DNA from: Antedon mediterranea
Taxonomy: Eukaryota; Animalia; Echinodermata
Length of the DNA stretch: 64,000 bases
Direction: 5' to 3'
Assembly (NCBI RefSeq): GCF_964355755.1
Contig: NC_092671.1
Location: 23,448,070 to 23,512,069 of the forward strand
Both the position numbers and the translations under genes were made by a program. Under the pieces are notes generated by a model. It had not been told where the DNA came from. It searched no databases and saw only the letters and a program-made list of their open reading frames with translations. This document shows, piece by piece, positions 31,723 through 55,835 of this stretch (the stretch's first letter is position 1; each line of letters begins with the position of its first letter).

Positions 31723-32550
31723 TCCCACTAAAAAAATCACCGGGATCGTGAAAATTCCCGGCGGGAAAAATGGTCGGTATTCCCGGCGGGATAATATCGA
31801 AATCCCGCAAAAATCCCGTCCAATATCCCGATCTTTAAACGGGATTTTAATCGGGATTATCGGCAAAACGAACTTGATTTTTAGCGGGATTTTAGCCGGG
31901 ATCCCGTCCCGACGGGAAAAATGGTCGGTATTCCCGTTCCCGACCGGGATCCCGCCAAGAATCCCGCTAATGACCGGGATTTTTTTGAGTGATATTTGTC
32001 CGGGATTTTAGACGGGATCCCGTCCCGGCGGGAAAAATGGTCGGTATTCCCGTTCCCGACCGGGATCCTGTCAAGAATCCCGCCGATGACCGGGATTTTT
32101 TTGAGTGAAATTTAGACGGGATTTTAGACGGGATTTCAGCCGGTATCCCGTCCCGGCGGGAAAACTTGTCGGTATTCCCGTTCCCGACCGGGATCCTGTC
32201 AAGAATCCTGCCGATGACCGGGATTTTTTTGAGTTATATTTAGGCTAGACGGGATTTTAGTGGGATTTCAGCCGGGATCCCGTTCCGACGGGATGTATGG
32301 ATTTCCGCCAGAGACTTTTGAAGACGTGCGTTTATTTCCTGGCCCGGCCGACTCAATTGTATAAATCTTCGTATACCTACGATCGTCCTTTTGATTTCAG
32401 TAGGCCCTATTTCAACCATAATTGGTATTCGGACAGACGTGAATGAAAGGACTAGATGCAAAAAAAAAAACAATTCAATTAATTAACAAACAAAAAGTGA
32501 TCACACAGAAATATCATAAACAAACAAAGTTTATTTTTCCTTCTTTTTTT

Positions 32551-35500
32551 TCAGATTTTGTATTTTTTGTTACGGATTGCCCGAATCTTATCATTTAATT
32601 TTTTAACTACTTGGTCCCACACTTTATCTTTTTCAACTTCTTCCACAGGATAGACGTTGAACAGGTAACCTGAAAATTAAATATAGACAAATTTAGTTTA
32701 TTTGAATAATAATAACAGCATCACATTAAAAAATATATATATAATCATTTAGAGTATTAAGTTACGCCTACGGTGGAACGATATTTTTATAGAATGTTTG
32801 TTTTTATTTTTGTATCATTACTCTATTTCACAATACCATTATTCAGTTGTTTTAGCAATGTGTTGACTAACAAAGTTAATTGATTAATAATGTTGAGTTT
32901 ACTAACAATCGTACGTTGTGTTGAATAACAACTTTACTTTTTTATAATTATGACGCGCATTATGTTACGTTGTGCAAATAAATTGATAAAAACGTTGAGT
33001 TGATGAAGCACTCAACTATGTTTAGCAGTTGATTTTCAAAGAGCTGTAGTTATATAATATTAATTAATTGTTGAGTTGAGTTATTGTTGAATTGAGGGTA
33101 TGACGCTATTGGTTTTCCAGCTGATGAGTAATACTGCACTCCTGCATAGACAATGCATGTGTCGTATGCAGGAGATCCGATCAATAGTCACCTCCATAAC
33201 ATTAAGGATCGAAACAGCCGTCATCATCATTTATATTAGGTATTCTATTGTAAATAAACATTAGAATTATATGTTTATTATTTTTAAATAGTGTAATTTA
33301 ATTTAAAAAACAAAAACATTCAATACTGGCGATGATGATGGCTGTCCTGGGATAAACCCAGTTGTTTTTTATGTGATCTTTTGATGACTTCTTTCATTTT
33401 AGCAAATGCATTATATGAAAAAAATTTGGGTAAGTATTTCATTGCATAAAAAACGTACTCACTTCGTAATGTCTTTCTTTTTGCTTCGTCCATCTGGACG
33501 TTTCCCTTCCCGTGACCATAAATTGTTAACTTGTTGTAGCATTGCTCTTTAGTAATTAATAATTCAAGTGTGGATAACGCCAGTTTTTCAATGCTGTTTG
33601 CAAACATTTCGCATCGTTTCAGCGACTCCCTCTCCACCTTAACCCCATACTTGGCGTTACCCAAATATGTCATATCTGTTAACAGTAAAAACCAACATTC
33701 TCAAGGTTTATAGAGGAACACACAATAAGAAATAATTAGGGGATATTGCCATTGACTATATAGGTTTAACTCCGCCAAAATGCGCATGTGCCCATAATCT
33801 AAGACAAGAATGCAAATTGTATAGTGAATTATCTTTGCGCACACGTATTATAAATGTAGCGAACTGGATGTAATTTTTTTTTAAATACACTTACCATCTA
33901 AAGAGTTTTCGTTCTCCATGGCACTTTCGATGAACTGAAGAGTAGGAGGTGGTGGCGGCAGCGGAAGAGTAGGAGTCGATGGCAGATGAAGAGTAGGAGG
34001 TGGTGGTGGCGGAAGAAGAGAAGAAGGAGATGGTTGAGGCAGAAGGGGAGCATGAGGTGGTGGTGGGATGAGAGAGGGTAGTGGGGGAAGAGGCTTTATG
34101 CCCTGAAATAAATATAAAGAATAAATATAAATTACGTAAAACTACTCCGATAATTTTAATATACAGTGAGATAGTTTCTTACTTGAATCTTACTTGAATC
34201 TTCGGGCTCTTGATTAAGGCAAATGCCTTTTAAACGCCCTCCATTTCTTCTGTATTTATCTAGAATTGGTAGCAAAATTTATCTCCCATTGCTCTGTCTT
34301 TGTTTAGTTGATCCTTGAATGCATTTATGTTTTCTGCTTGTACTGTAGTGTGGTATAGATTGTTCCATGTGTTGACGATTCTACATGAAAAGGAGTGGCT
34401 TCTGATTTTCAGTCGGGCTCTTGGCTTTCTTAATTTGAATTGATGGCCCCTTGTTCTACTGTCCTCTCTAAAGTCAAAAAAGGTTTCGGCTTCAATATCA
34501 TCCAAGCCCTTGATAATTTTAAACACTTGTATAATGTCCGCTCTCCTTCTTCTGTAATTCAGTGTAGGTAATCCAAGCTCTTTTAATCTCTGATCGTAAG
34601 ATTTATCTCTTAACTTTTTGACAATTTTAGTGGCCCTACGCTGCACTCTTTCAAGCTTATCCAAATCACCTTTTAGGAGAGGGTACCATATACAGCTTGC
34701 GTATTCCAGATGAGGTCGAATTATACTTTTATAAAGGGGCAGGAACATATCCTTATCCATGTAAGCAAAAGATCGCCTTACCAATCCAATGAGTCTATTT
34801 GCTTTATTTACAGCTTCATTCGTATGTAGTGAAAATTGAAGACTGATCAAAAGTAACTCCAAGGTCCTTTTCAGTATTGGCATTTGGCAGATCCTCGTCA
34901 CCTTCCTCTGTTGGCATAGTGAATTGCATTTGTGGATTTGAATTTCCATAATGTATTACTTTACATTTATTAATGTTGAATTTCAGCTGCCATCTTTTAG
35001 ACCAATCGGATAATGCCTTGAGATCATTTTGAACAGTATCATTTCTGTTTTCATACACAACATTAAACATCTTAGTGTCATCTGCAAACATCCATACTTT
35101 AGATTTAACTGCATCAGGTAGGTCGTTTATGAAAATGATAAATAATAAAGGGCCTAACACGCTGCCTTGAGGGACTCCGCTTTTAACCGTAGACCATTCA
35201 TAAAACCCCTATGCATGGAATGTACCATTTTCCGGAATAAAATTTTTTTTTTTACAGTTTAAATTTAACTATAAATGAATTCTAGAGATATTTCACACAT
35301 TTTTCTGTAGGCTAGGCAAGTGCACCTCCGCGCATATCTCTCAGCCGACGCCGCAGTGTATATGATGAAGGGACCGTTATTAAAACGTTTGTATACACAA
35401 TGTTTAGGCTGATACATCGTGTATGTAATATAGCTACTAACCTCGTCCTTGCTTGATGTCTTTCTCTTCACATTACTACTCTGAAGGTTACAAATAATAC

Positions 35501-36530
35501 ACATTCCAATAAAATTACAATAAACTACAACCCAGTGGTCTGAATGTTACAAAATAATGTATTTTAATTAATTAATTTAGTGTATAGGCCAATATTACGA
35601 TATCGTGGTAACATTTTGCGTATTAATAATAATGATAATAATAATAATAAAATAATAATAATAGTTAATAAAAATAATATTAAATAATAATAATAATAAT
35701 AATAATACCTCATCTCTACACATTTTTTTGTTTTTGTCTTTACTATCACGCGATCCCTCAGTATTATCCAATTTTGTGAAAAGTAAGTGAAAATATGGTT
35801 TAATTTTGACTATATATTGTTAGTAATTCTTCTCAAATTCTGAGCCGCTTTATAAAATGTCTGAAAATGCTTTTTTCATTGTTGAGTCTAAATATAAAAT
35901 AAATATAATGTTGAATACATCAGAATCGTATAAATAAGCCCCTATATGTCCCACTGAAAACTTATTGATTAATTATATTGTTAAAACTACAATCCCGGTC
36001 GGGATGACCGGGATCCCGGTGCGTCGGGATACCGGTCATCCCGACCGGGATTGCAAAACTAGCTTAGGCCTAGGCAGCTATCGTAGGCATACCTCTGCAT
36101 AGGCCTAGTCTAGCCTATTTCATATAGGCCTAGGCCTAAAGCTTATTTAATATTTAAAAAAAGAAAGAATAGCCTCTAGGCTAGCTATAGGCTAAGGCCT
36201 ATTTATTTTAAATCGATGATAAAATATTTTGGTCCATAAACAGAGCATGTAGCCTAGGTGAACCTACATATAGGCCTAGTCTGGGTAACTAAAACTCCTA
36301 GGCTTGGCCTAGGCAGCTCCCGCGCGGGGGGTACGGTGTACAACAGTAGGCACCACCTAGGCCCTACCTCCAGTTCTTCCAATCATCCCTTCCTGGATCC
36401 CAAATCCAGGGCATCTCGCCTTTACAATAGTGCCGACATTTAATGGCACTTTACTGATGATAGCTGACATTTTCAAGATGTTACCTGTTATTGGCTTATC
36501 CTTGTGCCATATCATTAATACTATAGACAT
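32551..36530 (-). CDS. Spliced transposon accessory gene encoding a proline-rich linker and C-terminal BEN-like domain; possibly a pseudogene (middle exons uncertain)
   Basis: GT-AG exons: 36368-36530 (MSIVLMIW...), 35442-35480, 33895-34102 (poly-Pro), 33463-33675 (EKLALSTLELLITKEQCYNKLTIYGHGKGNVQMDEAKRKTLR) and 32551-32669 (YLFNVYP...VWDQVVKKLNDKIRAIRNKKYKI*). The last three join in phase; the exons between 36368 and 34102 are not fully resolved. AATAAA lies just downstream. The pattern matches BEN helices (L..LF..E, G......LD......I, W......N.K.R). Confidence 0.7.
33091..33360 (+). ncRNA. Extended type I hammerhead ribozyme (left copy)
   Basis: ccag-CTGATGA (33121-33127), GAAA (33211-33214), a 15-bp stem III pairing 33214-33228 with 33331-33345, GTC cleavage triplet 33344-33346, then ctgg pairing back to ccag. 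Confidence 0.8.
34180..35200 (-). mobile_element. CR1-clade LINE 3' fragment in an intron of the BEN gene
   Basis: GVPQGSVLGPLLF, FADDTK, RPHLEYA and RTRGHQFKL motifs; short tandem 3' tail (acttgaatct)x2. Confidence 0.9.
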
Positions 36531-38686
36531 TATGGTAGTGTAGTTTTTTAAATAAATAAAATCTCTTGTTCGTTGAAGAATTGAAGATCAAGAATGGCGG
36601 GTTTGAATAAAAAAGTTCTGGTTTGATGATCGAGGCGGGAAAAAGTATTGGAAAATGGCTGTTGAAATAATTGATGGAGTAGGGGGGAGGGGGTGGTTGA
36701 GGGGCGCGTGTAGAAGTTTTATTTTGTATGAAATAAAAATGTTATAGTTTATATTGTATTATTATTATTTCTTTTATTCGTAAATCATAGAGGTTTGAAA
36801 TGATGGGATTTAAAAATGGGGAAAGGTGGTGGAGGGGGGGGGGGGGGATCACAAGGGTGATTCTTGTAATCTTTTTTTTTTTCGTTGGCCGGACGTACGT
36901 CGTGTATGTTCGGCAAGTAGATCGCGTCGTATGTTTAACATAAAACAAAAGGAATAAGGATCGAAGAAGATTTACGTGTATATATATATATAGATCGACA
37001 GACTAGAGTAAGTTTTATTTTCATTCACAGTCTACTGATAGTGACATGTAACTAAATGACTTTGTGTGGTGCCGATTCACTAATTGTAGACGTATATGTG
37101 TGTAGTGCGGCCCAGTCGATTACGCGCGTTACGATCATGACGTAACACTTGAGAATACTGTAGTATCCATCCGCGCCTCAGCGCTCTCTCAGATCTCTCC
37201 TATTTATTCCCTCCACACCAATCCCTGCTCACTAGTAAAATAAGGACAGGCATAATATTCAGCTTATATATATAGGTATACTAGCTAATGAGATGACTAT
37301 AAAACAATTTAATACTGTAATGTGTTCCCAGATGCCTTCTTTATGAAATTAACATAGATTAGACGGTGGCCTATATAAAGCGTGTTTTACAAAATGTTGA
37401 TAAAAACACATTTTTTGTTTTAGCCATGTCAAATACAGAAAGTAGCAATGATGACTTTGATTCGCCAACAAAGTCTAAAATTAAAAAGTTTCACTCTAAA
37501 CACTTCGGCTTTAATGCAAGAAGGGCTCGATATGCTGCTACCAGACAGTTCAAACGCAAACAACCAGCAAAATCAAGACCACCTAAACACATCTCTTCGA
37601 CTTCTGATAGTAGTAGTTGTAACAGTGAAGATGAAATAATCTCACCGAAAATGGTCGGCAGTTCTTCTACTACTACACCAAGTCATAGCAGCACGTCTGA
37701 TGATACTGGCAGTGACTTCTGGACAGAACCAACTTCCAGTAGTTCAAACAACACCCCTTTTTTAACGAAATTATTTCAAGGATCTGATCATTCATATATA
37801 AGCCTGTATACGTCGATTTTATTATTTGTAATTAAGCACTCACTCACACAAGCTGCATATTCTGATTTACTTTTGCTGATTTCTTCTATTCTCCCTTCAA
37901 CATGTAACATAGAGACATCACTATATAAAAACAAACAAATTATTAAACGGAACACAAATTTCAAGGAACCAACACCTAATTTTTATTGCGAGAGATGCTA
38001 TAAGGAGTTGGAAAATAAGCTTAGCGTTTGTCCATGTGGAGGTTCGTGTCTCTCATTCCATCATCTAAGTCTTGATGACCAGCTTAAGGAATTGTTTGCA
38101 GGTAGGCATAGCTATGGTTTTTCGATATATCATTCTAATTACAATCGTTTAAAAATAAAGTCAGCAAATACAGTCTCAACGTACGATGTTTGATATCTTA
38201 GAATATATTTATATTTGGAAATAAACGGTCTATTTTATCATTTAACCATAACGATATATTTTACGGAAGCACACACTGTATTATAATTATATATTTTATT
38301 ATAGATAAACAGTTTTGCGACATGGTTATGACGAAGAAAGTCAACAGAGATACCATCGAAGACATAACCGATGGCTTAGTATACCGCCGCATTGCCCCAA
38401 GTGCCTTATGGAGCAATGAGACATTCATAACCTTTACTCTAAATACAGGTATTAACAATATTACAGTTTTTCGTATTTAAACATTCTATTACCAACACAA
38501 AATTGTCATCATTCTCATTTATTTTTATTTTATTAGATGGTGTGTCAATTTTTTCATCGTCGATGAAAACGCTATGGCCAGTGTACCTGGCAATAAATGA
38601 ACTACCAGTACAGCTCAGGTACATTAATAACTTTTTTTTTTTTTTTTGTTTACAAAATGAATCGGAACCCGTACCTACCCCTTTTC

Positions 38687-41600
38687 TACGGGGCGCCGTA
38701 TGGGACAATGCTAATTTTGTCGAAATATTACAATTTTGTCTACACATAATTAATTTTGTCAATACAAAATTCATTTTGTCAACACAAAATTAATTTTGTA
38801 TTGACAAAATTCATTTTGTGTTGACAAAATTTATTCTGTGTGGACAAAATTAATTTTGTCTTGACAAAATTCATTTTGTCTCGACAAAATTAATTCTGTG
38901 TAAACAAAATTCATTCTGTGTAGACAAAATTAATTCTGTGTTGACAAAATTCATTCTGTAACGACAAAATTCATTTTGTGGCGACAAAATTCATTCTGTA
39001 ACGACAAAATTCATTTTGTGTAGACAAAATTAATTCTGTGTGGACAAAATTAATTCTGTGTAGACTAAATTAATTCTGTGTGGACAAAATTCATTTTGTG
39101 GCAACAAAATGTATTCTGTGTAGACAAAATTTATTCTGTGTAGACAAAATTCATTCTGTGTAGACAAAATTTATTTTGTCGCGACAAAATAAATTTTGTT
39201 GCAACAAAATTTATTTTGTCGCGACAAAATAAATTTTGTTAGCCGAGCCTACTCAAGCGTGGGACAAAACGTTTTAACATTTAAATTAGAAGGCGGGGTT
39301 GTTATTGGAAACTCGAAGATTGACAGTTATAGGCCTACGATCAAACAGCTCGCGAATATCATTTTACGACCTCCTCTACACCGGTGAACTTGAATACTTT
39401 GCGTCGAGTATAAGTACAGTTTATACTGACGTATAACAATATTATTGTATACTTAAACTTAATTCCGATTCAGCAAAACGGAACACGTAGCCCTCCCGGG
39501 TAGCCCTATATGCCTACCAATTTTGGTAATAAATATTAAAGATGGTTGAAGATTTATATCGATACCGATAATATTGATAAAGAAAATGACAACACTATTT
39601 ACGATAACATCTGATAAGTTGAGTAGTAATGAAATGATTTTAGTTAATACATTTATTTTAATATAATAGTTAGTATAGGCCTATTTATTCTTATGGGAAT
39701 TGCGTCGTCTATATAGGCCTATACCAAGTTTATTTGATAGGAATACTAAATTGCTAATAGGCCTAACTCAAGGGAACAAAACTATGATATATCTCTTAAG
39801 ACATATATTAATTGTCTCTAATTGGAATAATAGAGATATCTTTATTGAAAAGATATCTTGGTTATAACAGGGATATATCTCTATTGGAACCTAAGATCTA
39901 TATTGTAAACTAACTACATCTATTAAAAACTAAGATATTTTAGTTGCCTAAATAAATGACAGTTTGGTACGCCATAGATTATGATATTGCAAATTGTCGT
40001 TAAAAAGTTAAATTTAATTTCAAAGTTACGTTTAACTATTAATTTTACTCTCGGTTGCATATTATTATATATTTACACCCTCGAAAGATATAATTCAACT
40101 TTGACCAAATAGTTATATGGGTGTTCACACAACTGACATATGGCGCCACTCAAGTATCCATTCCCATGGCAGTGTATATAATCTTTCCACCTTCTCCATG
40201 ATTGATTTGATTTATTATACATTGGTAATTGCAAATAATTGTTTATAGGTTTACATTGTTCTTTGTACTTTTAATGTACGTATTCAGTCTTTTCCTGGCT
40301 TGATAAGATTGATGTTAAATAAAAATGCATTTTCCACTAATAAAATATGGAGTTGTATCGAGAAAGTATTGTAATTTCGGGCAGAATGGTTTTCGGTCTG
40401 GAAAGGTCATTATTACACTGTCTGGAGTGTTGATATTTATACATCGAATGTTTTATGGGCAATCAGTCCTGAACCTAGACAACTTGCGTAGACCCTCAGT
40501 CAAACCAGAATGGTTTTCGGTCTGGAAAGGTCATTATTACACTGTCTGGGGTGTTGATATTTATACATCGAATGTTTTATGGTCAATCAGTCCTGAACCT
40601 AGCCAACATAGGCTACCTGGCCTACTTACTACTGTAGGTTAAAGGTTATTAGGTTTCGCAGGGTGGATGATTGTTATAATAAAACTAACGTGAGCAATCT
40701 TTTGTAGTCAGTTCTTTAAATGTTTTTTTTTTTCAAATAACGGACAGCTTTCAGCATCATTATTTCTGCAATGATTATTACTATCTTAAAGATATATTGT
40801 CCCCTGAAAAAAATGTTTTTTTTTTAATCTTTTTGTTGAATATGTTATTTTAATGTCACATAATAGTTATTCACTTTCACAAAAAATTGGGTCTGAAAAA
40901 AAATTATTTACCTGAAAAAACTGTAATTTAAAGCAAAAAATTGTCAAATTGTCTGGAAGCCAATGAGTTTTTGGGTAATTTAACTGTTTATTTTGTCTTT
41001 AATAGTTGAAATAATTTTTTTCCCCGTTCTTTTTTCTTATGGAAGTGAACAACTTTATTAAAACTGCATAATGGCCTATTCTTTATTTTTCATGATTTTG
41101 GGAGACAATACATTTTTAATTTTAAAATAAAGTATATACATTTTATAAGATTAATAAATAATATTTTAAACGACAAAATATTAAATAGCCCCATTACTAC
41201 AATTTTACTTAAGTAATAAGCAGGGCTCTAATGAAAACCATTTTCCGATTTTTTAATATAGAATACATTATAATAATAATTATTACTGACGACGTAGATA
41301 TTAAATTGTCAAAGTATGAATACTGATCATATCTGATATTTTCAGGGGTTCCCTGATATTATAAAATAGATTAATATGATAGCAATAGAGACGGAGGCAT
41401 GCTCAGCCATAATAACTTAACCAATAACAAATGTCAAAGATAGCTTCACCCTCTCTTGCCCTTTTCACGTTTAAACTCCGCCTTCTAATTTAAATATTAA
41501 AACCGAGCCTACTCAAGCGTGGGACAAAATGTTTTAAAAAACGTTTTGTCCCACGCTTGAGTAGGCTCGGCTAACAAAATTTATTTTGTCGCGACAAAAT

Positions 41601-42126
41601 TTATTTTGTCTCGACAAAATGAATTTTGTTGCAACAAAATTCATTTTGTCTACACAGAATGAATTTTGTCTACACAGAATTAATTTTGTCCACACAGAAT
41701 TAATTTTGTCCACACAGAATTAATTTTGTCGTTACAGAATGAATTTTGTCTACACAGAATGAATTTTGTCTAGACAGAATTAATTTTGTCCACACAGAAT
41801 GAATTTTGTCGTTACAGAATGAATTTTGTCGCCACAAAATGAATTTTGTCGTTACAGAATGAATTTTGTCTGCACAGAATTAATTTTGTCAACACAGAAT
41901 TAATTTTGTCTACACAGAATGAATTTTGTTTACACAGAATTAATTTTGTCGAGACAAAATGAATTTTGTCCACACAGAATAAATTTTGTCAACAAAAAAT
42001 GAATTTTGTCCACACAGAATAAATTTTGTGTTGACAAAATGAATTTTGTATTGACAAAATTAATTATGTGTAGACAAAATTGTAATATTTCGACAAAATT
42101 AGCAATGTCCCAAACGGCGCCCCGTA
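38687..42126. mobile_element. Non-autonomous IS3EU-like element with TIRs built of 20-bp tandem arrays, in a transposase intron
   Basis: TACGG...CCGTA termini with a 6-bp TSD cttttc (38681-38686 and 42127-42132). (gacaaaattcattctgtgta)n at 38710-39240 is inverted at 41570-42110. Confidence 0.8.
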
Positions 42127-43482
42127 CTTTTCACGTACACGCTACTGGAGGCCTCTTTATCATACTGTATTTCTATTACCGGTTTGACATATTTAACAAA
42201 TCATTATTATTAGGTTTTCAAGAAAGTATTTAATGCCATGCAATGTGTATTGCCAGTCTCAAAAGCCCAATATGCAAATGTATTTGAATGACCTGATGAA
42301 AAGAATACTTAAGTACAATGAGGGTGAGACACTTTTATTCTTTGCTTTACATAACTTAATTAATAATAACAATTCACTATATTACAATCAGTAATTACCG
42401 TATTTATTCGAATAGACGCCCTCCCCCCCCCCCCCCCCCCACTTGAATAAACTCTCCTCCCTTCTCTCAAATAAATGCCCGGGGGGGGCATTGTTTTTTG
42501 TTCCTCAAATACACGCCCCGCCACATGCATTACACACAATATTTGTAGTAGAATTCATTGACTTCCATGATCTACAGTTTGACCATGTATTTTCGCGCCG
42601 CGGCTCTAGCCAGCTATGTCCCAGGAGGACACATTAATTAATAAGCTGTTTCATAGCGGTAGCTTTAGTATCTAAGGCTGACAGTTTTGTGAATTTGGAA
42701 ACTCGACTATAATTTATAGGTAGCTGCTGGACCCAAAAAACGTCTGGGAGAAGAGAGTCTATATGAAAGCCTTTGCTGATAATACAGTATTATTGAGATG
42801 TAGACGGAAATCTGTAAAATCTTGATCAATAAATAATAACTTCGTTTTTGCTGTCAACCAGGCCGGTATTATAATAAGTCACTGTCAAATAATCATTCGA
42901 TAATGGTCAAAACTTTATTTTGGCTCTGTCAACATAAAGGGAGGTACAGTATTTACAATGACTTTCTTTGACTGTCAATCTAGGCCAATGTTATAATAAT
43001 ACGCCGTCAGATATTAAATCATTGAAACAGTCCTCGTAAATTTTTTGTTGGTTATCAGATGCCGTGGGGGGTCCAATCAATTATCGTCAGAAGGTGATCA
43101 ATCAGTCTATGTAGCAGCAGCAGATTATTAGGAACGCCTGCTCCATTAATTAATCCAGAAAAAGGTTTGTACATTATCTATTTGTTTATTAGCCTTCTCC
43201 TAACACAATTATATTTTCTTTAAAAAAAAGGTTTTATAAGTGGTTTCAACATTTATGATAGTAATGTCACAGTTCTGTGTCTGGACGCAAGTTCATAGAC
43301 CTACTAGTTATATTATTCATATTAACTGATACTTACTCTTCATTTACCGTAAAGTTCAGTTTTAATGAAATATATAATATAAATTGGCTTCGTAACAATT
43401 AATTAGTTTTGAAAAGATTAGTTTTTTGGTGATAGGTGAAAATGACATGTAACTTCGTAATCAATTTATTTTTTTTGTATAA

Positions 43483-43843
43483 AGGCCCAATTACACTATG
43501 ACGATAACGACGGACGATAAATATATAGCATGCATTTTTTTTACATAAACCAAAAGAAATTAGAAAGGTTTTCGTTCTAGACCTATAGGATAATCATTTA
43601 TGCTGTCTTTGATAAAAATAATGTTTTTCAAATTCCAATCAAATGACGTCATGATAAATAAAAACAATAAAATCGCTGTATTGTCACGATATTATTGGTC
43701 TTACTAATCATGACGTCATTTGATTGGACGTGTGAAAATATAATTTTCATCAAAGGAATTGTTTATATTTCTTTTGGTTTATGTATTAAAAATGCACATT
43801 TGTCTATTTATCATCGATCGTTATCGTCCTAGTGTATGGGCCT
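43483..43843. mobile_element. Palindromic Harbinger-type MITE
   Basis: ggccca..tacacta.gacgataacga / tcgttatcgtc.tagtgtatgggcc with taa/tta flanks; the whole element is roughly self-complementary. Confidence 0.7.
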
Positions 43844-44054
43844 TATGCTGTAAATGTTCAATTAATTGATCATTCCGATTTTATTAGTTGGACTCTTGCA
43901 CAGTTGGTGTCTAATCGTTGTTGTGTAATATCATTTCGAACCATATTAAAATCATAAAGAGATTCATATTCCTTAACATGTGGCTGTGCATGGAAGTCTG
44001 GTCTACACAAACTCGGCCCCGGGCCTGAAAGTGTTGGTGAATTCATAATTATAC

Positions 44055-44094
<40 letters not shown>

Positions 44095-44098
<4 letters not shown>

Positions 44099-44270
44099 CC
44101 AAAGGCAAATTACTGAAAAATATGACAATGCTGTGGGTATCAGTGGCTGGATCTCAATGGAGATACAAAAATAAAAAGCGAAAAGCTAAATCAAAACGAT
44201 AAAGTAAACAGCCAGAAAAGTTAGCAGAGCTTTCGGGCAACACTAGCCCTTCATCAGTGCAAGTGACATA
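44095..44270 (-). mobile_element. Solo Penelope-type pLTR with a minimal hammerhead motif (44224-44260), next to a (TA)n run
   Basis: Minus strand reads gca-CTGATGA-a-gggc(tagtgtt)gccc-GAAA-gc-TC-tgc. Confidence 0.65.
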
Positions 44271-45501
44271 TAAATATATTATTATACAATTGAAAGCAAA
44301 ACCCGTTGAATCTCAAATCATTAGGACTAGAAATTTGGCTTATCAATCAAATAAATCTTTCGTTCAAAATGAAACTCCAACCTCTGTAATCAAAAGATTG
44401 AACTCGAAAACGGACCGTTTTTTTAATTGGGTATGTTGAAACATTTCAATATTCATTTAATAAAGTACATTAATTATGGTATTGATCAGTGGCTATAGAG
44501 GCGTAAAAACCCTCGGTCAATATCATGTAGAATGCACTGTGGAAGGGTCATTATTAAGACTGCAAAATTGGGCTTATCAACAAATAAATACTTTCGTTCA
44601 AAATGTAAAATCAAGGCTGAAAAATTGGGCTTATCAACAACAAAATATTTTATTATTAGACGCGATAACATCAAGGATAATCAGTATAATTATTAATATA
44701 GCCACTGTTACTTATAGTTTTATTCTACATGCTAAAGTAAATAAAAATCCACTAGAAAACAAGCAAGTCTGAATGTTATGCTTATTAGCCATGTTATGTT
44801 TGTTACTGTAGGCCTATGATTGTTTGTAATGTCCACATATTATTTCCGTGGGCATATCCATAGTGTATCACTCACAAAAAAGACGTGTGAGGTTCTTTCT
44901 TTAGATTTTGAAGAATGATTTGTGTTACATGTTGACACAAGAGTCAAATGCTCAAGATATCGGCTAACGCCATGGGACCCTTGGCTTATCAATGAATAAT
45001 AAATACAGTACTACTTTCGTTCAATTGAAATCGGAATCTGACTGTTTCATTAAATTGGGTGTGATTAGGCCTAAACATATAATAATTTATTAAAAAGGTA
45101 CAATAAAAACAAATGCATCAGAGGCGTAAAGAACCCACGGTAAATATCATATAAAATGTATATGGTATAAGCACTGTGGAAGGGTCATTATTATTAAACT
45201 GGAAAATTCGGCTTATCAACAAATAAATACTTTCGTTTAAAATGTAAAATAAGACTGCAAAATTGGGCTTATCAACAAATAAATACTTTCGTTCAAAATG
45301 TAAAACAAGCCTGCACAATTGGGCTTATCAACAAATAAAATACTTTTTTTTTTAAATGTAAAATTAAGACTGGAAAATTAGGCTTATAAACAAATAAATA
45401 CTTTTTTTCAAAATGTAAAATTAAGACTGGAAAATTGGGCTTATAAACAAATAAATACTTCCGTTCAAAATGTAAGAAAACATTTTTTAAATATAATCCT
45501 A

Positions 45502-45655
45502 AGCTCTGTCTATACTATCAAACTAAATATGATGTGCCCATATTATATAGACATGACGATGTCATATCACTACGATAATCGGGCATATCACTACCATATT
45601 TGGGCACATCACACTTTTTTGGTTAAACTAGTTGGGACAGTGTAGACACAGAACT
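45502..45655. mobile_element. Short Harbinger-like MITE
   Basis: agctctgtctatact ... agtgtagacacagaact, with an internal gatgtgccca / tgggcacatc inverted repeat. Confidence 0.5.
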
Positions 45656-48600
45656 ATGTGATCGAAACATAAGTCGGAATTGGACTGACGCGATTGATTT
45701 AATTGGGTATTTTTATTAATGTAATGATTCATTAAAAACTATAATACCGATACGCGTTTGGTATTGATCAATGGTGCAAAAAACCCTGAGAAATAATGTT
45801 ATAACGCGATTTGGTGATAGCTTAGCAATAATACAACCCATATACTATTATTATAAATACCTATTACAAATCCATTCATATAACTTTTCATCGCGAACCG
45901 AAAATGTATAAATGTTATTCTACAGACAGTAATTATATATTCAAAAGCCATATTATTATTATTATCAATACCTAAATGCGATAGTAATAACTACATACAT
46001 TATTCCCAATACAAGTGTGTGCGTTTAATTCTAGAAAGAAACGACTGTGCTGACAGGCCAATGACATAAATCACAAGTAAAGTCCCAATTGTTCACTTGC
46101 GTTTTGATTGGCCAACCTATTATATTAGATTAATGAAGACTGTTCTTACAACTGTCCAGTCAAAAAGTTACGCGGCGTTTTTTGTAAGAAATATTTCTTG
46201 TTTATATAATTTTTACTGTATTTTATCACATATTGATATTATAATTGTGTTGTATTTTTTCATATTTAGGACGAACTTATTTGATTATTCAGGTTACCAT
46301 ATTTTTACACAAAAAAACGCCTCCCTCGAATAAACTTCGAGAACCACCCCCCCCCCCCCCCGCCCACACCCCTAAAAACCTCCCGGGCATTTATTCGAAT
46401 AAATACGGTATTTATCAAGACGACGCAGCAATTGCAAAACAATACGAGAAATACGTTGGTGGTGAATTTGAGTTTGAAATTATAATTTTTTTTGATGATT
46501 TAATATTCGCAGGTGTTTTAATGCAAACTTATTATGGAAACCGTCTGATTACAGCGCGTCTTTTGGCTACATGCTTAGATCTACCCGCTAGAGCTATTGT
46601 ATCGAATATGAAACAATATAACGGACGATTCGGATGCAATTCAACGTATGGCTGCAGGAAGGTTCTATGGGAGCAACACCGTTACATCGCTTTTATCCGT
46701 ATAGAGCCACCAATGCACTACGGACGAATGATGGATTCAAAGAAAAGTCGCAAATGGCCGCCATGAATGGAGAAGCAGTACGTTAAGTTCTCATTTTGTT
46801 ACCGTGCTAATAAGAAAAAATTAAAAATTTTTGTTTTTTTTACCGTACCGTACTTATCTATTGCAGGTAAGCGGCATTAAAGGCGCATCACCACTCATGC
46901 TTCTTCCGTATGTAGACATGAAGGCAGCTATTCCAATCGATTGGATGCACTGCGTGCTCCTTGGCATCACGAAACAACTTGGCAAAGACTCCAAAGGACA
47001 ATCCTTTTACATTGGAAATAAGGTTAGTTGCAACATTTTGTGTAGGTGAACAATTTTACTGGACCAAAAGGCCAGGGATAGGCCCACTATTATATTGGCT
47101 TTTGTGAAAAACTATTTTTTACAATCAAAATATAATTTATGAAATATATATTATAATTGTATTTGTTTAGATTGCTCTTCTTAACGAGCGACTTTTGGCG
47201 ATAAAAACGCCTAAATTTGTCGCCCGACGCCAAAGAAGTCTGGACGAAAGCCAGCATTGGAAAGGTAAGATTAAAGAGATTAAGGAATTGCAACATGACA
47301 ATTATTGTTTAATTATTTTATTTTAATCCAATGAATACCTACTCATTGTACAGACCAGACACAACACACAGTAACGAACAGCCGATTGATCGAATTTGAC
47401 CAAGCAAACTTTAATTTATGTATTATTAATTTTATGATACTTTGGATTTAAAGCTTCAGAATGTCGTGAATGGCTCATTCACTTTCGATACCTGTTGTAA
47501 GAGGGATATTGGATCCAATGGCGTTACGTCCATTACAGTTTACTGGTATCGGCAATTTCTACTCTTGCACAGGAATCTATTACGAAAGAACAACTAATAT
47601 ATGCTGACACATTACTGACGGACTTCTGTGCAATTTTCCCCACAATCTATGGTAATTTAAAACATTTAACTTCTCTACGAATAATATTTATTTTATGCTG
47701 TGATACTCTATTTGAAACCCTGATTTTTTAATACTGGGTAAAAAGTACATTTTAAAAATGGCTTACCGTACTGTTTGTTGGATGGAATTTTCCCATTTCA
47801 ATTATATTTGTGAGATTGTATATTGAATTTTAATATCCTAGGTGAGACTAAGCAAACAATGAATGTGCACCAACTCACACATGGTCCATACATGTGAACG
47901 GTTTGGACCGTTATTTGGTTTCTCTTGTTTCGTATTTGAATCGATGAATTCTTTCTTAAAGAATATGGTCCATGGATCAAATTTTGTAACTGAACAGGTA
48001 TGTAAAACATTTATTTAAAACAATTCAAAACAAATAAATTCAGACAATTTATATTAATTGCATCAATATTTAATGATTTAATTAATCAAATTATAATATT
48101 CATCTACCGAAATATAGCCTAAAACATAAACCGAATTCTTTACATCATTTAAAATTACTTAGTGATCAAATTCCCACAGATAACGTTCGCTGCCAGCATG
48201 ACCAAGGCCTTGCCAGCATTGGTGTATAAACTGAAAGAAGAAAGCAGTACATGTACGAAACAGCTGCTTGATAGACTGACAGTGAAATATATGCGGCAGT
48301 AAGTTTCCTGTTTTGCATGTTAATGTTATTTGTCAACATAAATCAAGACATGATCAATGCATAATTCTCGAAAAAAAATGAATTTCTTTTATAAATTTAC
48401 AGTGGATTATTTAGCAGGTAGGCCTAGTCCTACAGTAGCTAATCGTTATGTCATTTGTTTATTGGTTAGAATAATCGTTTATATTACAGAGATAAAGAAC
48501 CCGATGTGACAACGGTACTAGGGAGAGGTGTGCCGATGACGGGTACCAATTTTCGATACCTAATTGCAGACCTCCGTCATGTGACGACTTTCAAGCGGCT

Positions 48601-48989
48601 CCAAAAGGGCAGTGTTGTATATACTTGCCAAAGCGAGACGAGCAAGACGAAAAGTAACTGCTGCGTCGTCTTTCAATTAAATGATGCCTGGGCAGTTGGA
48701 AAGATACTCACGTTTATCACATCCACAACATCCACTCACTGCATCATACAGACGTACACATTAGAAGGATCGTTATTTGATTTCAATCAAATAAGGCATG
48801 CTCAAATACGAGCGTATGATGACAGAATATTATGCCATCATATCCAGAAGGTCAAATCATCGTCAACAGTACTCGTACCAGTGTCACGCATTCTTAAGCC
48901 GTGCATCTTTATGCATATTCATGATGACACGTTTGTGTCGGTACCACCAAACTTGTTGGAACATGACTAGTGTAGTGCTAGTAGTATGT

Positions 48990-49350
48990 GGTGGGGTATG
49001 CGGGTTATTATAACCTTGGTGGAGTGACGTCCCTGCCCCCAAGATGCATAGTTATTGTAAATAATGGCGGGGTATGCGTGTCATACAGACCTTAGGGAGT
49101 GACGTCCCTACCCCCAAGATGCATAGTTATTGTAAATAATGGCGGGGTATGCGGGTTATTATAACCTTAGTGGAGTGACGTCCCTACCCCCAAGATGCAT
49201 AGTTATTGTAAATAATGGCGGGGTGTGCGGGTTATTATAACCTTAGTGGAGTGACGTCCCTACCCCAAGATGCATAGTTATTGTAAATAATGGCGGGGTA
49301 TGCGGGTCTTACAGACCTTAGGGAGTGACGTCCCTACCCCAAGATGCAAA
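48990..49350. repeat. ~62-bp tandem repeat (~5.5 copies) immediately after the transposase stop
   Basis: Unit ggggtatgcgggttattataaccttagtggagtgacgtccctacccccaagatgcatagttattgtaaataatggc with small variants. Confidence 0.9.
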
Positions 49351-49410
49351 GTTAGTTTATGGTATATTGGCCTAGATATATGAATTTTAAATGGCAAACA
49401 AAATAAAAAC

Positions 49411-49670
49411 TGGGTTTATTATCCCAGGACAGCCAAATCATCATTATTCAGTGTGTTTTTTTTTAAATTTGCTAAGATCTAATTAGTTTGTACGGTATGC
49501 CGTATCTTTATAACGAAATAATTATATCAATGATGATGACGGCTGTTTCGATCCTTAAAGTTGAGGTGACTATTGATCGGATCTCCTGCATACGACACAT
49601 GCATTGTCTATGCAGGAGTGCAGTATTGCACTCATCAGCTGGAAAACCAATAGCGTCATACCCTCAATTT
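49411..49670 (-). ncRNA. Extended type I hammerhead ribozyme (right copy)
   Basis: Minus strand: CTGATGA 49638-49632, GAAA 49549-49546, GTC triplet 49430-49428, same stems as the left copy. Confidence 0.8.
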
Positions 49671-49931
49671 AACAATAACTCAACTCAACAATTTTAAGTA
49701 ATTTAATTATTTTACAAAAGATAATTCAACTGATAAAAATGGGAATAATGTAATTTCGTCATGTTATACAAATAAATTCATTTTTGATCAACTGAAACAA
49801 ACATGTTAAAAATAGTGGTGCTTAACCACGTTATCGACATTTATTCAGTGAAAAAATAACAAAGAACATACTAAATATATAGAGTAACAGTTAATGAATT
49901 AACATTGATAATCAACTCAACGTAAACTTGT

Positions 49932-51578
49932 TTTTTTCATTTCATTTCATTTCATTTATTTCAATATCATTATCGCAGCCTTAGCTGAATTACAAAGATA
50001 TTTACATTTGTTCAATATTAAAATTTGTAAAAAAGTATAAAACCAATGATAAAAAAATATAAAAAAGGAGGAAATTTACACAAGAAATACAATACAGGAA
50101 CATTCAAAAAGTTTAGCTTAAAATATTAAAATAGAAAAAAAAACACCTAAAAGCATCAATAAAAATCGCAAAGCTGTACTGGGTGATATATACAGATTAT
50201 TCATTTAGAAGCGAGATAAGGTATGGAATTGCACTTTTTCTATATCTTTCAACTCTGCATTTGGGTTGTTGATACTTTACACGTCTTAGTTTCATGTTAC
50301 TTACATTCTTCACTGGAAACCATTTTCCAAAATGAATACTTTTTGAACAATTCAGAGCAAACTTATAGCATAGATTACGCCTTCTATCAGATAAAGTGTC
50401 TAAAGAAAGATCATTGAGTGCTTGGTCATAACATATGTAGTCATTACACAATATTATTCTGCAAGCCCTTTTTTGGACAGATTCTATCATATCACTTTGT
50501 TTCTTAGTGAGACTAGAATGCCATACTGGGACAGCATATTCAACACTTGGTCTTATGTAACTCTTAAATACATCTACAAGATCAAATTTCGGAAGATTGA
50601 ACTTTCTTAATCTACATAATATATGCAGACGTCTGCTGGCTTTGGATACAATTTCTTTAACATTACGGTCCCATTTGAGGTTAGCTTGAATCCATAAACC
50701 TAGTAACTTAGTTTCATTAACGATTTCAATTGTAGCATTACCAATGAAAAGGGGTTCATGTTCATATTGATTTCTTTGAAAGTTAAAATACATAGTTTTA
50801 CATTTAGTTGGGTTAAGTTTTAGTTTGTTTTCATTAGACCATACATTCAGTAAAGCAACATCATTCTGAATTGAGGAAATTACATCCTTTTTTACTATCT
50901 GTCCTATGCACAAATCATCTACATATTTCCAAGTTTTACATGGCGAGTCTTGCATGGCATCATTAATTAGAGCAAGAAAGATCATAGGCCCAAGGAGCGT
51001 ACCTTGAGGGACGCCACATGTTAGATTAACACTCATTGATAAGGTGGATTTATAGCGTACTTGTTGGGTTCTGTTTGATAAAAAGCTAATTAACCACGGT
51101 ACAATTTCAGGTCTACAACCAAGTGTTACTAATTTAGAAACTGCTATTGTGTGGTCAACACAATCGAATGCTTTACTAAAGTCAGTTAAAACTAACTGAC
51201 CAACAGATTTGGGAATGTTACTACCTTCATAGAACACATTTAGTAGATCAACCAAATTATGGGTTGTAGAAAAGTGTTTACGGCAACCATATTGGTTGTT
51301 ATCAAGATTTTTCTCGATATCTGTTAAGAGCCATTTTTTAATGAAGCCCTCAGCTACCTTAGCTAGGATACATGTAAGTGAGATTGGTCGAAATTTGTCA
51401 ACCCTAGTACAACCATTTTCTTTGGGAACCGGAGTAACAATAGCATCCTTCCACATAGTTGGGACATGACCCTCACTGAGGGAGGCATTTAAGATATTAG
51501 TCATAGGGATGCTTAGTTCACATGCAAAATCTCTTATTAATCTGTTAGGCACATTATCAGGGCCCGGGGACTTGTTAA
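49932..51578 (-). mobile_element. L2/CR1-clade LINE, 5'-truncated, with an open 451-aa RT frame
   Basis: ORF 50197-51552 contains FRPISLT, LTDFSKAFD, GVPQGTLLGP and KYVDD; (ATGAA)n tail at ~49936-49960. Confidence 0.9.
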
Positions 51579-52355
51579 CTCAACATCAATATATTCAACG
51601 TAGCATTGGTTAAATCAAATCAACTCGTTATTAATGAAGATGATATGTTAAATAAATAATAAAATATGTGATTTAAATGATCAAAGTAGCCGTGGCGTGC
51701 GTCGCATAAAATGGTGGCACATAAGGTAGGCCTACTATTGTCAAAAAAGATGCAGCGGAGCTAATTTGATCATTAATATAAGTGGTATTTAAAACAAAAC
51801 ACAATTAAACTATTCAACGCAAAAACATTTATCAACATTACCAGTAAAAATACATACAATTTACAGATGAATGCTGTCTGTTACGAATGTGGTATACCGA
51901 AATGATCCCAATGACTAATTCCGAAATAGACGCTTTCAAATAACTTAGATTGTGGCAGACGACATATCCTATTCTTATCTCGCTAATCGGTGGGATTCCA
52001 AACAAATCTCATCGTGATGTCGCTAAATATAAAAAAAAAAATTTCGAGACAAAATCCATAATTTGCACGAAAACGTAAAATCCCAAACAAATCCGTCTTC
52101 CCTAAATCAACTGTCCCGATCATATGATAAATCCCGCCGTATCGGTGGGATCCCAAACAAAAAATCCCGTTCATTCAGAATTTGCGCTAAAAATCTCGGT
52201 TAACCGACGGGTCGAGCACAAGCAAAATCCAGCCTATCCCACACTAGTCCCATAAATCTCGCCGTGGCGACGGGATCCCGAACAAATCCCGTTCATTCAG
52301 AATTTGCGCTAAAAACCCCGGTTGACCGACGGGAGCTACAAACAAAAATCCCACA

Positions 52356-55300
52356 TCTATATATAAATTTACGTAAGGGCAAAATTCGGTAAATTGCGCC
52401 TTACTTCTAGAATTTGTACTCGATGGTATATAAAGTTGGTTCGTACTTTCGGTACTGATTTTAACCACCTGATGTAACCCTGTTTACTAATTAAATTAAG
52501 TTAGATAATTAGTTATTGACGATTAAAACGAATTTAGGTTCAACGATTTGCCCCAAATAGAGGTGTTTTCCGATCGTGGTATACACTGTCTAATGGATGT
52601 CCATCTTGAAAAATACCCGCCACAAAAATGCGAGGAGGCTTCGCATTTTCCTATCTCCTCCTACGATAATTGTTTTTAATAGCTGAAAACCGGTTGAACA
52701 GCTAGAGTACACCATCATAATGTTGAAGACAGGCCGATTTTCTTAAAAAAATACTATTTTGATAGATTTAATATACGTTTATACAAATGTATTGATTTGC
52801 GATGAATGGAACATCCCAATCTCTCAGTCTGCCAGAGTTTGGTTTAACACAAGTAGGTAAATTTATGAGCCCCTGGTTTAACACATACGGTAGGTAAATA
52901 TATGGGCCCTTTGAGAATAAACTTGCAATACTTTGACAATACAGTAAATACCTCATTTGAATCGAAAGTTTCTTACTGTGAATGTTCGTACTGTTAGATG
53001 TAATATAAAAATATATACAAATAAACTGTATTACTGAGATTGTGGATAGGCTGTACTGTTAGATATATAAACACATTATTATATACAAATAAACTTTATA
53101 CTGACAGTTCCTTCTCAACGTTTGTATTAATTAATAATTACCAAAAATATAAACGTCGTAGTGGTGTATCGTGACATGTACTTTAATATTTCAATCGATT
53201 ATGACAGTGACAGTTTTAACAAAGTATTATTTATTAAATCTCAAATGTTTTACTGTATTTAGAGGTATAGTATTTATAGGCCTATAAAACAAGAACAAAA
53301 TATTTTGTTACTGAGTTGATAAAGAATATATTTAAAAATTGTTCCTCTTTGTACCTATCCGCTTTCCTATCCCTCAACCCTAATGTTACATACAAAACAC
53401 AAATTGGGTTTCTTTAAATGAGGCCAAATCAAAAATTTGGACTCATTTTGATAAGTTTCTCCTTCGGAAGTAATTCACAGGGTGCTAATTTTAGTTGACT
53501 ACATAAATCATCGTGTCTATTTATTCGTTTCTGTAAACGACAATGTATTATAGTCCTGCGGTACGTACATTTGAAATCGCCAGTTTTGCTACGCTGAAAT
53601 TACTGTTTATTCGAGAACCATCTGTGGGCACGACCTAGATGGTACGCGAGCGAAGCGAGCGTACCATCTAGTCTATATATAAATTTACGTAAGGGCAAAA
53701 TTCGGTAAATCGCGCGTTATTTCTAGAATGTTTACTCGATGGTATGTAAAGTTGGTTCGTACTTTTGGTACTGATTCTAACCACCTGATGTAACCCTGTT
53801 TACTAATTAAATTGAATTCGATAATTAGTTATTGACGATTAAAACGAATTTAGGTTCAACGATTTGCCCCAAATAGGGGTGTTTTCCGATCGTGGTATAC
53901 ACTGTCTAATGGATGTCCAATTTGAAAAATACCCGCACACAGTAATACGAGGACACTTCGCATTTTCCTATCTCCTCCTACGATAATTGTTTTTAATAGC
54001 TGAAAACCGGTTGAACAGTTCGAGTACAGCATCATAATGTTGAAGACAGGCCGATTTTATTTTAAAAATGCTATTTTGATAGATTTAATATACGTTTTTA
54101 CAAATGTATTGATTTGCGATGAATGGAACATTCCAATCTCTGTTCCACAAGTGTCTATTCCCTCAGGCGTCGTAAAAACAAGTACTGTATAGGCTACTCA
54201 TAACAGAAATTCGATCCATTTTTTTCACGCTGCTGCTCTAGCCCGCTACGTCCCATTAGGACTACTCAATCAGAAGCTAAAGCAAGCAGCAGTTATAGTT
54301 CTAAGGACAGACAGTTTTGTTAAAATGGAAACTCCACTATGATTTATTGATTCCAGCTGCTACAGTAGACCCAAAAAACGTCTGGGAAAGAGTCTATGAG
54401 GACATGTCATGCTAAAATTACAAATCCCTAAGCATTTCTGGTATATTCACTGTCAGATATTCATTGAATTATTATCGAAACAGTCCATTAAAGTTTGTGT
54501 TTGTAATAGGATACTTCACAATTGAAATATCTAGGGTGATGAAGTGACCCCCAGATTTGACCTTAGCAATAAAATTAACTAAAGTGACAGAAATTGAGTA
54601 TTCACTTCTGTAACAAAAAAATAATATTTATTCACATATAAAAAAAAAAGAAGAAACCCAAAAACTGACAGACAATTTAAGTATTTGTTGCTTTAAATTA
54701 CATTTTTCAGGTAAAATAACTATTATGTGACAATAAAATGACACATTCAAAAACATTTGAAATAAAAAATATTTTTCAATAAGCGAGCAGCGTTTTTTGT
54801 AAAAAATATTTCTTGTTTCAATCTGTGCTGCAGAGGTTGGATATACATTTTTTTTTAAACGGATAAATGAGCTAGCGTTTTCAGTCGCCGTATATTTATC
54901 CATATTTATGTACAAATATTTATTATTGCAGTTAAACCACCCACATCATCACCCTTCCCTCACTGGCATGAGTAGCGTTGTAAATCCAGTAGAGGATAGG
55001 CCTACAGTGCATCACATGCCCTAAACGCAGAACAACTTTGGTGGGTAGGGTAGGAACCAACTTAAGTATGAATTGGCTCTAAGAAACAATTGAAAACTAT
55101 TAGGCCTACTAATTAAGTTGAGTTAGATAATTTAATATATATTGACGATTAAATCGAATTTATGATTTGCCCCGAATAGAGGTGGTTTTCACAAATTGTT
55201 TTACATTTTATAAACATATACACGTCGTCGTAGTGATGTATCGTTACATGTACTGTACTTTTCAATCGACCAGGACGGTGATAGTTTCAACAAGTATTAC

Positions 55301-55726
55301 ATCGCAATGTTTTACTGTGTTTAGTGGTATATTAGTTGTAAAACATGAAAACAATTAATATTTCGTTACTAAATGGATAAAGAATATATTTAAAAATTGT
55401 TCCTCTTTGCACCCATCCTCTTCCCCATCCCTCAACCCTAATGTTACATATAAAACACAAATTAAGTTTGTTTAAATTTGACTTAAACAATTAGTCTCAT
55501 TTTGTGACAAGTTTCTTTTTCGGAAGTAATTCCCAGGGTGCTAATTTTAGTTGAGTACATAAATCACAGTGTCTATTTATTCGTTTCTGTAAACAACATA
55601 TATTATTGTTCTGCGGTACGTACATTTGAAATCGCCAGTTTTTTAACGCTGAAATTATTATGTATTCGAGAACCATCTGTGGGCACGACCTAGATGGTAC
55701 GCGAGCGAAGCGAGCGTACCATCTAG
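52356..55726 (+). mobile_element. Head-to-tail dimer of non-autonomous Helitrons (52356-53671 and 53672-55726)
   Basis: Each unit starts TCtatatataaattt and ends with hairpin ctagatggtacgc-gagcgaagcga-gcgtaccatCTAG. The dimer lies between A and T with no TSD. Confidence 0.85.
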
Positions 55727-55835
55727 TATCCCAAATTAACTGTCCCGATATAATGATAAATCCCGTCGTGGCGGCGGGATCCCGAGAAGAATCCCGCTCA
55801 TCCAGAATTTGCGCTTAAAATCCCGACAACCCGCC

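Follow-up and report, generated by a model that had tools for sequence, protein, structure and literature searches.

Two homologous hammerhead-type RNA motifs were found in a decayed CACTA/CMC (CACTA/EnSpm) DNA transposon of Antedon mediterranea, one in each arm and both facing inward. The window, i.e., the whole stretch of DNA analyzed, covers 64,000 nucleotides (nt) of contig NC_092671.1 (RefSeq assembly GCF_964355755.1, positions 23,448,070 to 23,512,069), and positions are counted from its first letter. As judged from sequence, each arm carries an inward cassette of approximately 600 base pairs (bp), composed of a GTTGA-rich stretch and a motif. We tentatively propose that the cassettes, which are predicted to self-cleave, quite possibly cut RNA that runs into the element by way of its arms or flanks and leave the antisense downstream piece to decay.

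Paired hammerhead motifs

The hammerhead boxes (C3UGANGA9 and G12AAA) and the NUH site with the A15.1-U16.1 pair are present in both motifs (Table 1). Inverted homology between the arms was found at 33018-33370 and 49740-49401 (E 4e-75), which bears out the original prediction, made from the letters alone, of two homologous motifs with CUGAUGA, GAAA, and GUC at these positions and strands. In the 64-kilobase (kb) window, a loose type I descriptor matched exactly two sites, i.e., the left and the right motif. With the weaker motif as the quality bar (stem III of at least 7 bp and stem I of at least 6 bp), one site arose in 1 of 200 dinucleotide shuffles and two sites in none of the 200. Chance does not account for the motif pair. 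The CUGANGA box is absent from the strands opposite both motifs, and both motifs fold better than 200 of 200 shuffles (z -4.5 and -5.1).

The two copies were originally thought to agree only in their paired segments and to have unrelated stem III loops, and this was taken as selection on RNA structure. Neither point stood. The 5' 166 nt are 96% identical with the loops included (161 identities, 2 mismatches, and 5 gap positions), the 3' part is 83% identical, and the stem III loops share 56% identity, with a score reached by 8 of 1000 shuffles. The stem III loops are diverged homologues. A seeming compensatory change between the two window copies (49670 with loop II) was dropped, because the public runs carry the left-type letter at the right locus too.

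RNA architecture

The description of the motifs as type I hammerhead folds holds in part. The boxes, three helices around the core, and an open stem I are in agreement with it (predicted stem I of 6 bp plus an extension, and stem III of 15 and 7 contiguous bp), but the fold is not canonical. In the left copy 46 nt and in the right copy 48 nt separate A9 from the G10.1-C11.1 pair of stem II; this insertion is predicted to fold as two flush hairpins, i.e., hairpin 1 of 5 bp with a short loop and hairpin 2 of 9+4 bp. Stem II, predicted as 5 bp, follows directly after hairpin 2 and closes with the G10.1-C11.1 pair before GAAA. In type I hammerheads stem II comes directly after A9 or one nucleotide on. 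Because stem II is not next to A9 here, the motifs were filed as a hammerhead type I variant, not as a plain member. The same separation of 46-48 nt is the reason why Rfam misses both motifs; among the 17 matches of the window at E<=1 there was no hammerhead.

In modeling terms, the two extra hairpins and an A9-G12 stack would give a four-way junction compatible with the core. Loop II is complementary over 7 bp, extendable, to the strand just 5' of stem I, and this predicted pseudoknot between leader and loop II probably provides the tertiary contact. On the modeled fold, self-cleavage activity is plausible. According to Perreault et al. (2011, PMC3088659), approximately 40% of hammerheads use a pseudoknot contact of such kind. 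The pseudoknotted type I hammerheads described there share with our motifs the core boxes, the GUC site, the open stem I, and a predicted contact in which loop II pairs with the strand that extends stem I, but the core insertions described are 1-2 nt, whereas ours are 46-48 nt with two hairpins. No insertion of this kind between A9 and stem II was found in the passages and listings of the literature searched; variant architectures given in supplements (PMC3088659 or others) could affect how new the fold is. A natural hammerhead with two hairpins at this point would be a new architecture, missed by Rfam and standard descriptors, and, if it holds, would imply uncounted ribozymes in animal genomes.

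In the assembly, left hairpin 1 is without a GC which is present in 67.5 of 67.5 of the depth of run X1 at that place, and the loss is private to the assembly. A 5-bp hairpin and then a U-rich run stand on the 3' side of the cut in each copy. A sigma-70 scan was set aside as inapplicable to a eukaryote, and only its hairpin-plus-U match was kept. At the boundary of stem II and GAAA (33207-33215) stands GATCGAAAC, which we take to fit the B-box consensus of RNA polymerase III (Pol III); it is possibly a by-product of the core.

Mirror placement and conservation of the pair

The inward orientation of both motifs was borne out, and so were their mirror placement in the arms and the occurrence of the pair in another organism. 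The upstream ~290 nt are homologous between the arms (score 69, reached by 0 of 100 shuffles). Nine GTTGA motifs lie upstream of each copy, where approximately 0.4-0.5 are expected, and they point one way in all cases on the right and in 9 of 10 on the left. The distance from C3 to the left end is 1397 nt; to the right end, which is truncated, it is no less than ~1300 nt once a long interspersed element (LINE) and a Helitron-like block are taken out. The LINE insertion (49933-51576) is 5'-truncated and has the target duplication ACTTGTT. Because the upstream ~290 nt are only ~53% identical, the duplication of the cassette is considered old. On the proposed reading, the cassette would be a long-standing part of the element, not a late passenger. 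The transposon had been described as bracketed by the ribozymes; a motif is indeed found in each arm, but both lie ~1.3-1.4 kb inside the ends, with the last BEN exon and both subterminal arrays outside.

For comparison, contigs of public runs were aligned at 80% likeness, and such contigs show presence, not absence. The eight run alignments contained at least 43 (X1), 66 (X6), 20 (X8), and 6 (X10) contigs, and at least 15 (X2), 32 (X5), 10 (X8), and 4 (X9). In sample S1 (study P1), one 168-nt contig with a depth of 62.5 shows 0 other letters against the left copy and overlaps both right-flank contigs (depth 31.7 and 19.6) by 30 nt. Because both copies collapse into this single contig, the two motifs are identical over 168 nt in S1. 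In organism B (study P2), which shares about half of the sampled words, contigs connect each motif with its own flank. The motif pair therefore predates the split of organism B. Differences at 33021-33079 were seen in one contig of this organism (X6). A single contig of study P3 spans 33047-33343. In X10 (organism C, share 0.05), 100 nt were identical to the left flank, and this was not treated as a distant relative. Selection alone is insufficient for the near-identity of the pair, because the two agree even at loop positions where other copies differ. The inverted arms probably undergo gene conversion, which would keep the pair alike.

Motif copies outside the element

The motif is much more abundant than its host. 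A 98-nt contig with the whole CUGAUGA box has a depth of 516.6 in X2, where the flanks have 20-32, and of 687.9 in X1, where they have ~45; these depths are rough ratios only, not copy numbers. Because the BEN exons and flanks stay near the depth of one or two loci, most motif copies must lie outside the host element family, as defined at 80% likeness. From the contigs, there would be roughly 10-20 further motif loci. Flank depths in X8 and X9 were ~2-8, fitting low-coverage DNA. In X9 the element's own variant was not among the contigs, and in X5 positions 49356-49395 had no coverage; neither gap was counted as absence. One X8 contig ends at 33343, 3 nt before the predicted cut, and was not used, as other X8 contigs pass the cut.

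Of 23 substitution rows in the variant map, 17 fall in the motif, and the six in the flanks or the stem III loop were dropped. Among the listed variants, one of the 10 core positions varies, i.e., N7, a free position, and no change was seen in stem II (0/10), hairpin 1 (0/10), the stem I 5' strand (0/6), or the stem III 5' strand (0/6). Two of 14 pseudoknot positions vary; both changes keep the pairing, and one of them turns a G-U into a G-C pair in a large share of copies. No two-sided change of the pseudoknot was found among the listed variants. Equal contig depths in X8 and X9 suggest one C-G to A-U change in hairpin 2. Among the outside copies, variation avoids the core, stem II, and hairpin 1, but hairpin 2 is poorly kept.

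The commonest outside variant, the 98-nt contig above, has a depth of 516.6 in X2 and 62.1 in X8. It splits into two subtypes, with depths of 183.8 and 210 (X2) and of 28.6 and 40.1 (X8), which part at about the same place in stem III where the window pair parts. From the sequences, this split would fit another element family that carries one motif on the left and one on the right.

Pattern scans matched metagenome contigs (4 loci) and viral contigs (17 loci), but the matches were judged to be chance, as none had the two hairpins plus stem III. Another scan of viral contigs and a scan of prokaryote genomes gave 0 matches.

Proposed role and alternative explanations

In the proposed mechanism, the messenger RNAs (mRNAs) of the BEN-like and transposase genes would carry the motifs antisense and would not be cut, whereas inward transcripts, started in the cassette or in the host, would be cleaved at 33346 and 49428. 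Hammerhead cleavage gives a downstream piece with a 5'-OH. Being antisense to the BEN and transposase genes here, that piece would be uncapped and likely unstable. On the right side, the AATAAA at 49402, which probably serves as polyadenylation (poly(A)) signal, would put the predicted mRNA end at the cut site; the poly(A) site predicted from it brackets the predicted cut on the other strand. Because the mRNA end would be set at the cut, the upstream cleavage piece would barely overlap the transposase mRNA. In AT-rich DNA, this coincidence may be chance. The benefit to the element would be less antisense RNA, or less precursor of PIWI-interacting RNA (piRNA), over its genes.

Animal hammerheads have so far been explained by RNA-based replication, i.e., by Penelope elements and retrozymes. 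No RNA intermediate occurs in cut-and-paste transposition, and a pair that is kept there in mirror placement needs a different job. One that can be tested directly is defense against transcription of antisense RNA or piRNA precursors. No description of a ribozyme in CACTA or any other class II element was found in the literature searched. A wider form of the proposal is unlikely, in which an active four-way-junction hammerhead was fixed in both arms of several CACTA families in the lineage and cuts any inbound transcript. Whichever way it faced, a copy that landed in a host gene or a piRNA cluster would then give no antisense precursor over the transposase, and the pair would be an RNA-catalyzed anti-silencing fence in a DNA transposon.

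Several points weigh against the proposed role, and many of them concern the origin of the motif. By rough contig depth (core 10-20 times the flank), ~85-90% of motif copies lie outside the host element family, and the host element looks like one or two loci per genome. The motif may thus have been an independent, low-copy, dispersed retro-repeat, e.g., a Penelope end or a short interspersed element (SINE)-like unit, which entered one arm and reached the other by conversion, without benefit to the transposon, and which survives only antisense since a sense copy would destroy the mRNAs of the element. The antisense-only orientation is equally expected from such survival, a dispersed repeat with two subfamilies would explain the two subtypes of the commonest variant just as well, and the near-identity of the pair, loops included, points to sequence homogenization and is not by itself evidence of selection. 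Dead motif variants exist; in loose ends of contigs, some copies have a changed core and others lack C3 together with the stem I 5' strand. The upstream motif GTTGAGTT recurs in the loose ends of outside copies, so the unit may be autonomous of the element. According to Cervera and De la Pena (2014, PMC4209133), hammerheads that derive from truncated Penelope elements, solo or on the opposite strand, are widespread, and bioRxiv 10.64898/2026.07.22.740005 finds genes depleted of retrozymes. The proposed protection would also be incomplete on the left for host read-through, because the left motif leaves ~1.6 kb, with the last BEN exon in it, on its outer side.

We consider such a repeat a strong rival but a less likely source. 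Penelope-like terminal-repeat hammerheads, as described in PMC4209133, share with our motifs type I, dispersed single copies, and extra sequence between positions 9 and 10.1, and the fungal and protist forms also have a large helix III and act as monomers. However, the extra sequence there is one nucleotide, and the animal forms are minimal and act as dimers; most animal motifs have a helix III of 1-2 bp, whereas stem III here is long and stable instead of little or absent. Our copies are 16 kb apart in a DNA transposon, and no Penelope open reading frame (ORF) adjoins either of them. Among the 125 window ORFs scanned, no Penelope reverse transcriptase or GIY-YIG ORF was found next to the motifs, and the only reverse transcriptases near the motifs are LINE-type RVT_1 pieces, one of them inserted in the cassette. 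Animal non-long-terminal-repeat retrozymes, as described in PMC7229834 and 10.64898/2026.07.22.740005, share the type I hammerhead, an AT-rich unit of a few hundred bases, and an invertebrate-like genome, but they form tandem repeats, circular monomers, and hundreds to thousands of copies, whereas single inverted copies and ~10-20 loci were found here. That is few copies for a retro-repeat of this kind. Tandem units of 150-450 bp in head-to-tail order were not found in the window, and go-back joints, the sign of tandem copies, were not listed in the eight run alignments. On the question whether the motif is a dispersed independent repeat, which was raised with the original prediction, the share of outside copies thus speaks for it and the lack of tandem retrozyme arrays against it. 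The mirror placement and the old upstream homology would also require an extra coincidence.

Other points against the cutting of inbound RNA concern the fold. In the lowest-energy fold of both copies, a long helix between leader and loop II takes the place of stems I and II. The core-compatible fold lies 7.3 and 10.3 kcal/mol above it with the pseudoknot term uncounted, the pairing probability of stems I and II is near zero when the pseudoknot is left out, and the 3' hairpin (-6.8 and -7.0) competes with stem I. In the listed variants, 3 of 18 positions in the lower stem of hairpin 2 vary, all pair-breaking, and 5 of 8 in its upper stem; one variant loses 3 nt at hairpin 1, indels otherwise fall mostly in loops and in hairpin 2. 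Conservation also looks higher than it is, since copies of greater divergence do not pass the 80% likeness filter. The motifs could be hammerhead-derived and inactive, with the active fold blocked by the insertion and the competing helix, and be kept as a structured RNA or DNA site. The extension of the right-copy hairpin 1 over G8 and A9 and the missing Rfam match would agree with this. It is quite improbable in our judgment, as N7 alone varies in the core among the listed variants, no damage is seen in the GUC site, the A15.1-U16.1 pair, stem I, or stem II, and folding programs cannot score the pseudoknot (-5.3, or -11.1 if extended) or the core contacts.

The extra hairpins are unneeded for catalysis, yet hairpin 1 is invariant among the listed variants, which would fit a small RNA gene. 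An inward promoter would be followed by a ribozyme forming the 3' end of a working 5' product of ~260-280 nt, e.g., a protein-binding decoy or regulator, and the hairpin plus U run after the cut would end transcription. Such a hairpin and U-rich run stand after the cut in both copies and appear so in the loose ends of other copies, and the nine upstream GTTGA motifs are nearly all in one orientation. A small RNA gene is improbable all the same: a clear Pol III A box was not found by eye, and the B-box-like GATCGAAAC, which shares letters with the GAAA core, may be a chance likeness. The cutting of inbound RNA by a mirror-placed pair is kept here as a tentative proposal.

Host transposon

The CACTA identity of the element, as originally predicted, was supported by its left end, the subterminal arrays on both arms, and the collinear transposase match. 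It shares with CACTA/EnSpm (CMC) transposons the CACTA terminus, subterminal arrays on both arms, a tnp2-type transposase, and, probably, a second, BEN-like gene, but it has lost its right terminus and its target duplication. Subterminal repeats and a second, DNA-binding gene are regular features of this group. The coordinates are given in Table 1.

Table 1. Coordinates of the hammerhead motifs and of the host transposon features in the window
Feature	Position	Strand	Remarks
Left motif	33066..33363	+	C3 33121, G12 33211, C17 33346; complete hammerhead core, GUC site; predicted cut after 33346
Left motif parts		+	leader/pseudoknot strand, stem I 5' strand, core 33121-33127, hairpin 1 33128-33139, hairpin 2 33140-33173
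Left motif parts, continued		+	stem II 33174-33210, GAAA 33211-33214, stem III, 3' hairpin plus U run
Right motif	49407..49693	-	C3 49638, G12 49549, C17 49428; complete hammerhead core, GUC site; predicted cut between 49428 and 49427
Right motif parts		-	core 49638-49632, hairpin 1 49631-49618, hairpin 2 49617-49584, stem II 49583-49550, GAAA 49549-49546
Left GTTGA-rich stretch	32774..33065	+	upstream of left motif; ~53% identity with gaps to right stretch
Right GTTGA-rich stretch	49694..51666	-	split by later 5'-truncated LINE
Left terminus, CACTA then A run	31726..31736	+	interrupts 22-bp subterminal repeats of older P-like element
Left subterminal repeat array	31741..32293	both orientations	CGGGAT motif
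Right subterminal repeat array	52131..55935		52131-52290 and 55760-55935; split by Helitron-like block
Last BEN-like exon	32551..32669	-	frame and splice sites; outside left motif
BEN-like exon upstream of motif-bearing intron	33463..33675	-	
CACTA/CMC transposase gene, multi-exon	37426..48970	+	frameshifts, stops, nested insertions
First AATAAA after transposase stop	49402..49407	+	abuts 3' end of antisense right motif

The subterminal repeats match across both arms (score 67, reached by 0 of 100 shuffles). The right arm terminus is lost near 55950; a right terminus matching the left CACTA end and a target duplication were searched for and not found. Candidate termini at 49850 and 57436 were rejected, with 8 and ~10 matching bases and no subterminal context. 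The block at 52356-55726 consists of Helitron-like units, a later insertion in the right subterminal array. Its 5' TC, its 3' hairpin and CTAG, and its position between A and T are what we take to be a Helitron-like signature.

The left motif lies in the last intron of the minus-strand BEN gene, as had been proposed; removal of this GT-AG intron (33462-32670) leaves the frame open to the stop. The gene is putatively BEN-like by motif likeness. Its atlas neighbors have BEN in 12% and 25% of members, a lead that is below the recognition threshold. Pfam gave no match on two single BEN-like exons, and the homologue search of the BEN-like protein gave none. A second version of the BEN-like exons, ~8-10% diverged and common to organisms A and B, was seen at 32508-32708 and 33390-33686 and may be an old allele or a paralogous copy. 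A second BEN version of organism B without the 5' half of the left motif was dropped, as the shortened contig was not tied to that locus.

The right motif lies 437 nt past the transposase stop (48968-48970), in agreement with its predicted place beyond that stop. The transposase gene matches the abalone protein P0004 in eight collinear tblastn pieces (E<=5e-5), and P0004 itself hits Transposase_21 (E 3e-11) and DUF1258 (E 5e-12) of Pfam. P0004 and P0041 are both above the Pfam cut-off for Transposase_21, and both are collinear with the gene. The window exons alone hit only DUF1258, at E 0.035. The best protein match of the transposase was annotated from a feather star. Word-based protein searches gave no match, and in the transposase alignment against viral contigs 0 of 21 candidates matched.

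Within the element, a palindromic CGGGAT subterminal cluster (35990..36053) lies between the divergent BEN-like and transposase genes and is a possible autoregulatory binding site. A 75-bp minisatellite of 4.9 copies (48989-49354) fills the space between the transposase stop and the right motif. A foldback element with ~590-bp inverted arms of 20-bp repeats (38687-42126) was found in a transposase intron.

Other elements in the window

LINE reverse transcriptase fragments were found at 34200-35208 and 25629-27241, one of them within a BEN-like intron. An older element with 22-bp subterminal repeats (28093-31722) has its right end cut by the CACTA left end. The interrupted end of this P-like element was searched for and not recovered. 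It contains a C-terminal remnant of a P-element transposase on the minus strand (29340-29717, Pfam Tnp_P_element_C, E 0.01). A GDSL lipase-like fragment was predicted at 400-750 on the minus strand (Pfam E 1e-4, below the cut-off). A copy resembling 5S ribosomal RNA (6411-6528, Rfam 81.4 bits) may be a pseudogene or form the head of a SINE. At 17281-20092 lies a further element, whose inverted arms of 675 bp are 94% complementary.

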